Part shown: positions 57,001 through 60,000 of the stretch, in pieces
How the letters are laid out: every line of letters begins with the position of its first letter
Numbering within the stretch: the stretch's first letter is position 1
IMG/VR virus record: IMGVR_UViG_2718218360_000002
Strand: one strand, 5' to 3'
DNA from: a virus
Taxonomy: Duplodnaviria; Heunggongvirae; Uroviricota; Caudoviricetes
DNA length: 64,000 nucleotides
Made by a program: the position numbers

Positions 57001-60000
57001 GAGGTCATGACCAAAGCCGCAGAGGAAGGGCGCACGCTGGATGTGGAGGAGGAAGAGCATTACGACAACACCGCAGCGGAAATCCGTCAGGTGGATGCGC
57101 ACCTGAAGCGCCTGCGTGAACTGGAAGCCGGTAAGGCCGCCACGGCGCAGCCGGTGAAACAGGCCGGTAACGGGAATGTGGCCGCGGTGGCTTCTGCGCC
57201 GGTGATCCGTGTGGAGCAGAAACTGGATAAGGGGATTGGCTTCGCCCGCTTTGCCAAATCGCTGGCTGCGGCTAAAGGCGTCCGATCTGAAGCCCTGGAA
57301 GTGGCCCGTCGTCAGTATCCGGATGACAGTCGTCTGCATCATGTCCTGAAATCGGCAGTGGGCGCGGGGACCACCACGGATCCGCAGTGGGCAGGCAGCC
57401 TGTCTGAATATCAGGAATACGCACAGGACTTTATTGATTACCTGCGTCCGCAGACCATTATCGGGCGATTTGGTCAGGGCGGGATCCCTGCACTTCGTCA
57501 GGTGCCATTCAATATCCGTGTGCACGCCCAGGTGTCCGGCGGTGCTGCCGGCTGGGTGGGTGAGGGTAAGGCAAAACCCCTGACGAAGTTTGATTTTGAA
57601 TCCATCACCTTCAGTCATGCGAAGGTGTCGGCCATTGCGGTACTGACGGAAGAATTGATCCGTTTTTCCAGTCCGGCTGCTGATGCACTGGTCCGTAATG
57701 CGCTGGCGGAAGCGGTGGTGGCGCGTCTGGATACAGACTTTGTGGACCCGAAAAAAGCCGCAGTGGCAGATGTCTCCCCGGCGTCCATCACCCATGATGT
57801 GAAGGGCACGGCATCAACCGGTAACCCGGATGCGGATGCCGAGGCTGCGTTTGGACAGTTTGTGGCAGCAAACCTGCAGCCCACCGGTGCGGTCTGGCTG
57901 ATGTCCAGCACCAATGCCCTGGCACTGTCCATGCGTAAAAATGCGCTGGGTCAGAAGGAATACCCGGACATGACCCTGCTGGGTGGCTCCTTCCAGGGGC
58001 TGCCGGTGATTGTCTCCCAGTACGTGGGTGACCAGCTGGTGCTGGTGAATGCCCCGGATATTTATCTGGCGGATGACGGCGGCGTGGCAGTGGATATGTC
58101 CCGCGAGGCATCACTGGAAATGCAGTCTGAGCCGGGCGGCGACAGTACCACGCCGTCCCCGGTGGAGCTGGTTTCCATGTTCCAGACAGGCAGCGTGGCC
58201 ATCCGTGCGGAGCGCTGGATCAACTGGCGTCGTCGCCGTACTGCGGCGGTGGCGGTGATCACCGGAGTGAACTACGGCAGTGCGTCCGGCGGCTGAGTCT
58301 GATAAGGAGGACGGGAGGCGTGCGCCTCCCGTAACAGGTTATGGCAAAGATCCGATATCTGCAGGGCACGCATGATGCCCGGGCCGGGGATATCCGTGAT
58401 GTGGCACAGCCGTGTGCGGAGGTGCTGGTTCGCCTGGGAAAGGCGGAGTACATCACGGTGCGACGTCCGGCAGGTCAGAAAAAGAAACGTGATGCGGAGC
58501 ATGGCGAATGTGGAACCTTTTACGGCGAACCCGAAAAAACCAGAAATCAGGACGTGACGTAAGAGAGGCGGGCTGGACCAGCCTGTTTCAGGCGGTGGCT
58601 GAGCCCTTTTCCGGCGCCTGGCAGCAGGGCGTGAAGCCGATCCTGAAGCCGTCCTCTCCTTTCATGCGGTGTTTGCATGTATTTCGCTGATATCCCAGGA
58701 TATCGCCAAAATGCGGCTGCGTCTTATGCAGACGGATGCGCATGGGATACGCAGGGAAACGCGCCGGGGGATATTGCCCGCCTCTGTCGTCGTCCAACGC
58801 CCAGCAGAACCGCATCCAGTTTTTTGAACTGTGGCTGAACGCCAAACTGCGTCATGGCAATACGGTGGTGCTGAAAATCTAATGCCCGGGGGCAGATCAA
58901 AGAACTGCGTATTCTGGACTGGAGCCGGGTTGAACCTCTGGTGGCGGATGACGGCGAGGTGTTCTACCGCATCACGCCGGACCGGAACTGCGGGATCACG
59001 GAGGCGGTGACGGTGCCTGCCCGGGAAGTGATCCACGACCGGTTTAACTGTTTTTTTCATCCGCTTATAGGATTGCCGCCGGTATGCCGCCGGGCTGGCG
59101 GCCACGCAGGGGCATCATATTCAGGAAAATTCGACGTCTTTTTTCAGAAATGGCGGCAGGCCGTCCGGGGTGATTGAGATCCCCGGCAGTATTACGGAAG
59201 AAAATGCGAAAAAACTGAAGAGCAACTGGGACAGCGGGTATACAGGCGAAAATGCGGGGAAAACGGCCATTCTGAGCAACGGGGCAAAATACAACCCCAC
59301 GACGTTTTCACCGGTGGATGCGCAGACGGTGGAACAACTGAAGATGACCGCTGAAATTGTCTGTTCGGTGTTCCGTGTCCCGGCCTACAAGATTGGCGTG
59401 GGACAACCGCCTTCCAGTGACAACGTGGAGGCGCTGGAGCAGCAGTATTATTCCCAGTGCCTGCAGACGCTGATTGAGTCCATTGAACTGTTACTGGATG
59501 AGGCGCTGGAAACGGGGGAAAACGAGAGTACAGAATTTGATGTCACCACGCTGCTGAGAATGGACAGTGAGCGGCGCATGAAAACGCTGGGGGATGCGGT
59601 GAAAAATACGCTTCTCACGCCCAATGAGGCCCGTAAACGGGAGAACCTGCCGCCCCTGGCCGGCGGTGATGCACTGTATCTTCAGCAGCAGAACTACAGT
59701 CTGGAGGCGCTGTCCCGTCGTGATGCCCGTGAGGATCCGTTCGCGTCTGCCGGGAAAACAGTTTCATCACAGCTGCCTGACGGCGCATCTGACGGTAATA
59801 AGGCAATCAGTGAAACAGAGCATGATGCCGGTGAAAGCGATGTTCAGGGGGATTACTGAGAAAATGACGGAACGGGAACTGTCCATTATTCGTGCACTGG
59901 GAGAAGAATTTTCCACAGTGCTGGCGGATTTACAGCGCACATTTGAGGAGAAAATAGCCGCGCAGGCACAAACGTTTGAAGAAAAACTGGCTTCTCAGTC

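Follow-up and report, generated by a model that had tools for sequence, protein, structure and literature searches.

Clustered indels in the portal genes of two adjoining O157:H7 prophages: probable consensus errors in a long repeat

Introduction

Asadulghani and colleagues are said to have described in 2009 a genuine decay of morphogenesis genes in the defective Sp/CP-933 prophages of Escherichia coli O157:H7. Here we deal with a locus at which such decay and faults of assembly have to be told apart, namely the two portal genes in a stretch of 64,000 nucleotides (nt) from the IMG/VR virus record IMGVR_UViG_2718218360_000002, in the following called the window. It covers a part of the O157:H7 chromosome with two neighbouring lambdoid prophages, A and then B, a layout that is also annotated in the strains F1 E4 and FRIK2455. 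Both prophages carry a copy of the same head and tail genes (copy 1 in A, copy 2 in B), and a sequence-only reading had reported a dense cluster of small insertions and deletions (indels) in the portal gene of copy 2, offering relaxed selection on one portal copy or a locally error-prone assembly as the explanation.

The portal gene of these prophages varies in length at two poly-G tracts, the first (2736-2741 in copy 1 and 59847-59851 in copy 2) occurring as G6 or G5 and the second (3861-3867 and 60972-60978) as G7 or G6. The intact form with G6 and G7 encodes a protein of 861 amino acids (aa), and it is the shortening of either tract that makes the Prokaryotic Genome Annotation Pipeline (PGAP) label the portal gene as 'frameshifted' (2585 nt) in most reference genomes. 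G5 is found in the first tract in prophages A and B of all three FRIK strains and G6 in the second tract in TW14359, Al Ain, prophages A and B of F1 E4 and prophages C and D of FRIK2455. These variants are probably real because they recur in many independent assemblies and are tied to particular alleles.

A second precedent is found in strain FRIK2455, whose prophage A differs from that of the sister strain FRIK2533 by no substitution and 11 indels in 12 kilobases (kb). The indels form two clusters, one in the capsid and portal genes and one in the tape-measure gene, and six of the 11 fall into the same stretch from the 3' part of the capsid gene to the 5' part of the portal gene that is affected in the window; FRIK2069 and FRIK2533 carry none of these lesions there. 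In the FRIK2455 annotation PGAP calls the capsid gene, an open reading frame (ORF) of 73 aa and the tape-measure gene 'frameshifted' and splits the portal gene into two shorter coding sequences. The FRIK2455 indels probably result from faulty assembly of this public 'complete' genome.

Results and Discussion

We compared the two copies by a global alignment of 1-6885 against 57116-64000, which together form a direct repeat of at least 6.9 kb running off both ends of the window. The copies differ at 11 events only, one substitution and ten small indels, which all lie within 797-2742 (copy-1 coordinates), while the remaining sequence (1-796 and 2744-6885) is identical. The dense indel cluster in the copy-2 portal gene was therefore borne out and the list of changes given for it was correct in substance: at least six indels in about 1.5 kb had been counted, the alignment gives ten in 1.42 kb, and the flanks are as identical as had been stated. 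Several changes had also been recognised as non-homopolymeric, and in fact five of the ten indels are located outside runs of at least three bases, the longest run involved being G6. Under uniform placement in the 6.885 kb such a concentration has a probability of about 5e-6.

In order to see which copy deviates, we compared the events with orthologous loci, 10 RefSeq loci and then 81 loci in all. The latter include TW14359, Al Ain and prophages A and B of F1 E4, FRIK2455, FRIK2533 and FRIK2069, together with two further FRIK2455 prophages, a BB24-1 prophage, 54 IMG/VR contigs and others. Eight indels turned out to be private to copy 2 and two to copy 1. Each indel state occurs in 0 of the 57-75 informative loci, with the exception of two short-homopolymer coincidences in FRIK2455 prophage A and Al Ain (Table 1), so that the proposed search of related prophages for the same lesions gave nothing beyond these two. 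At 1324-1325 the AA state of copy 1 is seen in 0 of 75 loci, 65 of which have AAA and ten an A/G variant of the same length. At the last copy-2 site the combined state AGGGGGATT is absent from all 57 loci, whereas G5 alone is a natural allele present in 16 loci. Strings spanning the lesions include GAAAATCTAATGCCC and GCCGCCGGTATGCCG. As copy 2 deviates at eight events and copy 1 at two, the damage is two-sided and both portal genes are broken as written; the sequence-only reading had taken copy 1 as the intact reference, which does not hold, since its portal is truncated at about codon 60. The single substitution (797/57912) is no lesion but a natural variant between prophage copies, with the G at 797 being carried by six other loci including prophage E of BB24-1 (see below).

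The same picture emerged from larger collections. The portal gene is present in 1,243 of 5,426 complete E. coli genomes, at 2,915 places, and none of the 5,426 has a 100% match to either copy; the best match of copy 1 is 99.9% and that of copy 2 is 99.5%. A 241-nt stretch with the CG and GT deletions reached at best 98.4% in each of 1,248 records, which means that both deletions are absent from them, and the lesions were found in none of 92 phage records (best match 99.4%). Lesion-spanning 35-mers had 0 matches in IMG/VR compared to 54 for the intact version. An exact look-up of 18 variants of lesion-derived ORF products in a protein collection gave no hit but one 60-aa fragment. It originates from a contig of a related phage, a metagenome scaffold (ENA ERZ28598973 scaffold_2594, 5320-5330) with a different 1-nt deletion (CTCC to CTC) located 5 nt upstream of the copy-1 deletion, and the identical 60-aa truncated portal peptide arises by coincidence. 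A literature search on the FRIK strains and CP-933O/P gave nothing on this locus.

Once the two copy-1 deletions are reverted, an uninterrupted portal ORF of 861 aa is obtained. Intact homologues of other E. coli have the same length, with 824 of the 861 residues identical, and the BB24-1 portal, which is annotated as intact (WP_015994249.1), also has 861 aa. On the repaired ORF the copy-2 lesions fall at codons 43, 87, 97, 126, 194, 443 and 451, and as written the first stop follows after 60 codons (58688-58690). The two 1-nt deletions are the only differences between positions 1-7000 of the window and prophage E of BB24-1, from which copy 2 does not differ at all over 59854-64000. The stretch 1548-4700 has a 100% match in three O157:H7 genomes. 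Over the 46 kb of unique sequence (11300-57115) there are three differences to FRIK2455, including one indel, and because of this low divergence only about 0.1 real differences are to be expected in 1.4 kb.

We therefore asked how this locus may have come to be written in its present form, and consider it very probable that the ten indels are base-calling or consensus errors of the source assembly and no bacterial mutations. Ten indels against zero private substitutions, the fact that both copies are affected at different sites and the fact that the reverted sequence is known intact elsewhere all point to such errors, as do further features of the lesions: they are private and absent from the orthologous loci of close relatives, they come without private substitutions on an otherwise perfect ORF, and they are located in a long multi-copy exact repeat where reads cannot be placed uniquely. 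The most likely state of the real genome is an intact 861-aa portal ORF that is the same in both copies. It follows that the cluster is in all likelihood no real biological feature. Of the two explanations offered before, a locally error-prone assembly is thus supported. Support is lacking for relaxed selection on one portal copy, because the lesions are indel-only, private and present in both copies of an otherwise perfect 861-aa ORF, and because the unique DNA differs from the nearest relative at so few sites.

A technical cause of the indels can be inferred, and the repeat itself may explain why they occur here. The affected stretch, the 5' part of the portal gene, lies deep inside a more than 10 kb long exact repeat of two neighbouring prophages: FRIK2533, whose assembly is clean, shows no difference between prophages A and B over more than 10 kb from about window position 55744, upstream of which terL of prophage B is about 3.6% different from that of prophage A. 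Positions 1-2400 are identical in 8 of 8 prophage loci compared, a single genome may have as many as 6-7 prophages with this first 2.4 kb of the repeat in nearly identical form, and the 5' part of the portal gene can be found at as many as seven places in one genome. The nearest base that separates prophage A from B is no closer than 2.9 kb to the copy-2 lesions. Reads from such a repeat would not be assignable to one copy unless they were long and anchored, and as a result polishing and finishing would presumably be weakest there, so that each copy may have retained its own random indel errors.

Several points weigh against this explanation. The indels are confined to about 1.4 kb and not spread over the more than 10 kb of the repeat, and a hard repeat alone does not explain this confinement. 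Half of them lie outside runs of at least three bases, which is atypical of a purely homopolymer-driven error. Moreover, the copy-2 cluster overlaps a switch between alleles that could equally be a real recombination junction. Finally, the support comes from a comparison of assembled sequences.

This switch concerns the allele type of the head and tail module. From about 2350 to 7200 both copies carry an allele that none of the other genomes has at prophage A or B, the best 12-kb match among the 5,426 genomes being 98.9-99.3%. The same allele is found intact as a third prophage ('E', at about 1.8 Mb) in BB24-1, 2-6-2 and ECP19-2498. Copy 1 is E-type throughout 1-7000. Copy 2 has a non-E base at 57912, switches to the E-type within 57913-59459 (or as far as 60772) and is E-type at 59854-64000, and the switch interval overlaps the indel cluster. 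An E-type allele at both A and B, with 1-7200 and 59460-64000 as the stretches concerned, means either a double gene conversion or a repeat that was mis-threaded in the assembly, and the switch in copy 2 fits a chimeric join or a mis-threaded repeat but also a real gene conversion.

Thus, a more specific version of an assembly artefact has to be considered, in which contigs or reads of different prophage copies were merged within the repeat and their low-quality ends gave rise to the indels. It would account for the overlap of the copy-2 allele switch with the cluster and for the mosaic at 2350-7500, which is seen at A and B in no other genome but exists intact as the third prophage of the three strains named above. 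As mosaicism is natural too, with F1 E4 and FRIK2455 differing from each other in the same blocks, and as direct evidence of contig boundaries is lacking, we regard a chimeric join as a tentative possibility, somewhat less likely than its absence. A biological version of the same observations would be a burst of indels by error-prone repair synthesis near the junction of an E-type conversion tract into A and B. Frameshift-prone synthesis in double-strand-break repair is known, for example as Pol IV-dependent -1 frameshifts in E. coli, and the E-type sequence at 1-7000 and 59854-64000, where all relatives have another allele at A and B, as well as a switch interval overlapping the cluster would suit it. 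The events are however a mixture of +1, -1 and -2 changes, half of them outside runs, and not the signature of -1 changes in runs; copy 1, which is E-type throughout 1-7000, is nevertheless affected by two indels in this stretch; the similar cluster of FRIK2455 comes without an allele switch relative to its sister strains; and the E-type at both A and B is as easily explained by mis-threaded repeat assembly. We find recombination-associated mutagenesis hardly credible for these reasons.

Genuine pseudogenisation would mean that the prophage is defective and that relaxed selection has let real frameshifts accumulate in one portal copy or in both. In its favour, O157:H7 lambdoid prophages do carry real lineage-wide frameshifts. 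The tail-tip gene J (gpJ) is split in the window and likewise annotated as 'frameshifted' in F1 E4 and FRIK2455, and most reference copies of the portal gene itself have the label at one of the two poly-G tracts. The gpJ split is a genuine lineage-wide pseudogene and for that very reason a contrast to the portal lesions: its frameshift is shared, whereas the portal lesions are not inherited by related strains with the same prophage and none of them is shared with any of the 1,243 genomes. Among spontaneous mutations in E. coli substitutions are about tenfold commoner than indels, and ten indels without a private substitution are the reverse of this spectrum; substitutions do not accompany the indels in the spontaneous proportion, and about 0.1 real differences would be expected in the stretch. 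In addition, about 800 codons after the frameshift at codon 43 are identical to the intact allele, and selection could not have kept them free of substitutions. Pseudogenisation is thus very unlikely, and consensus errors in the repeat are the explanation that we prefer.

Three other ideas were rejected. A programmed frameshift or a phase-variable homopolymer does not agree with ten scattered sites, five of which are outside runs of at least three bases. The net length change of copy 2 (-6), which keeps the frame, might be taken as a hint of selection but has a chance of one in three, and stops occur right after the first lesion. An origin in the 2001 EDL933 assembly, which has known gaps and ambiguous bases (PMC4132626), was dismissed as the window has no ambiguous bases and as resequenced EDL933 is not among the 40 best matches to the early region of prophage B, in a collection that does not include NC_002655 itself.

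In comparison with the known systems, the cluster matches residual consensus errors in the repeats of finished assemblies and not gene decay, phase variation or programmed frameshifting. With the residual errors of FRIK2455 it shares that it is an indel-only cluster in the same prophage-repeat stretch, private to one assembly and absent from sister strains. The positions differ save for one shared A3-to-A2 site, and the second FRIK2455 cluster is located in the tape-measure gene, the ORF of which is intact in the window. Genuine decay in O157:H7 also affects the head and tail genes of lambdoid prophages by frameshifts, gpJ being the example in the window, but as single events common to strains, in contrast to portal lesions that are many, clustered, private and two-sided. 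The poly-G length variation resembles the lesions in that one-base changes lead to the 'frameshifted' label of PGAP, but nine of the ten window lesions lie outside these tracts.

As an artefact the cluster is ordinary and its importance is practical only. It would cause both portal genes to be mis-annotated as pseudogenes and both prophages to be wrongly scored as unable to build capsids, and it would mislead typing across the repeat that is based on single-nucleotide polymorphisms or indels. This repeat of O157:H7 prophages gives trouble time and again, and RefSeq 'complete' genomes such as FRIK2455 are no exception. Should the indels be real after all, they would document a process rarely recorded in nature, frameshift mutagenesis linked to recombination between co-resident prophages.

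Table 1: Features of the window and of the reference loci used for comparison. Positions refer to the window unless an accession is given.
Feature	Position	Strand	Remarks
Copy 1 of head/tail repeat	1-6885	+	prophage A (nleA-carrying); extends past left end of window
Copy 2 of head/tail repeat	57116-64000	+	prophage B; extends past right end of window
Portal gene, copy 1	1392-3976	+	frameshifted as written; truncated after 60 codons; ORF resumes at 1553
Portal gene, copy 2	58508-61087	+	HK97-type portal (PF04860) with C-terminal extension; fragmented as written
Substitution	797 (copy 1) / 57912 (copy 2)	+	G / C; protease-capsid gene; synonymous ACG/ACC, both Thr
Copy-1 lesion	1324-1325	+	AA vs AAA at 58439-58441; frameshifts 73-aa ORF
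Copy-1 lesion	between 1547 and 1548	+	C absent (present at 58663); truncates copy-1 portal; deletion in 0/70 loci
Copy-2 lesion	58634-58635	+	AA; AAA in 69 other loci; one coincidence, FRIK2455 prophage A
Copy-2 lesion	58766-58770	+	G5 vs G6 elsewhere; one coincidence, Al Ain
Copy-2 lesion	58794-58795	+	CC vs CCC elsewhere; 0/64 other loci
Copy-2 lesion	between 58879 and 58880	+	CG absent; non-homopolymer; 0/74 loci
Copy-2 lesion	59082-59083	+	GT absent (GTGT to GT); 0/66 loci
Copy-2 lesion	59828-59829	+	one extra C; 0/66 loci
Copy-2 lesions	59847-59854	+	G5 for G6 plus one extra T (AGGGGGATT vs AGGGGGGAT)
Protease-capsid fusion, 645 aa	56359-58296	+	S78 prohead protease (residues 48-152) and HK97-type capsid (386-635); upstream of portal
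73-aa hypothetical ORF	58341-58562	+	intact in copy 2; WP_001063099.1 in reference genomes; overlaps portal start by 55 nt
Prophage A right arm	1 onward		head genes, then tail, tail-fibre and Lom genes; nleA at 19819-21144
gpJ (tail-tip gene J)	12917-14092 and 13969-16389		split into two overlapping ORFs
Island of insertion sequence elements and effector genes	about 21-32 kb		between prophages A and B
Prophage B integrase	32327-33457		followed by early genes and lysis genes
Prophage B terS	54074-54637
Prophage B terL	54634-56295
BB24-1 prophage E locus	NZ_CP038402.1 1812709-1833861
FRIK2455 prophage A	NZ_CP015843.2 1800000-1812000		RefSeq

The affected gene is an ordinary HK97-type portal gene of an O157:H7 lambdoid prophage. 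Its repaired product matches the profile Phage_portal (PF04860) over the full length and above the gathering score (E = 7e-81, 272 bits with a cut-off of 39.1, profile positions 2-321 of 321, residues 59-387), and it is found in the context of a head module with small and large terminase subunits, protease-capsid protein, portal and head-tail connector. In prophage B terL is followed by the protease-capsid fusion, the 73-aa ORF, the portal gene and tail genes up to the end of the window. This gene order differs from classical HK97, as here the protease-capsid fusion is upstream of the portal gene. The same module is present in sequenced Shiga toxin (Stx)-converting phages such as phage 2851 and YYZ-2008. 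The 73-aa ORF is conserved, has no Pfam match and is annotated as a hypothetical protein in all reference genomes; it is broken in copy 1 only, where it reads 1226-1438 as written.

With 861 aa and a portal domain of about 330 aa the portal is unusually long and decorated. Its C-terminal half contains 3.7 tandem copies of a 162-nt (54-aa) unit with 97% matches, at 2918-3510 and 60029-60621, and a weak CBM_5_12-like match is seen at its extreme C-terminus.

Outside of the repeat, the early region of prophage B is present at a coverage of at least 80% in only 55 genomes. In the island between the prophages, the window has at 30487 one A fewer than F1 E4, FRIK2455 and all top matches; no other private indel is present in the unique 46 kb. 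The missing A falls at the N-terminal end of a gene for an NleG-like (DUF1076) effector, with an ORF of 30518-31027 here and of 651 nt in the references, and is possibly an error as well.

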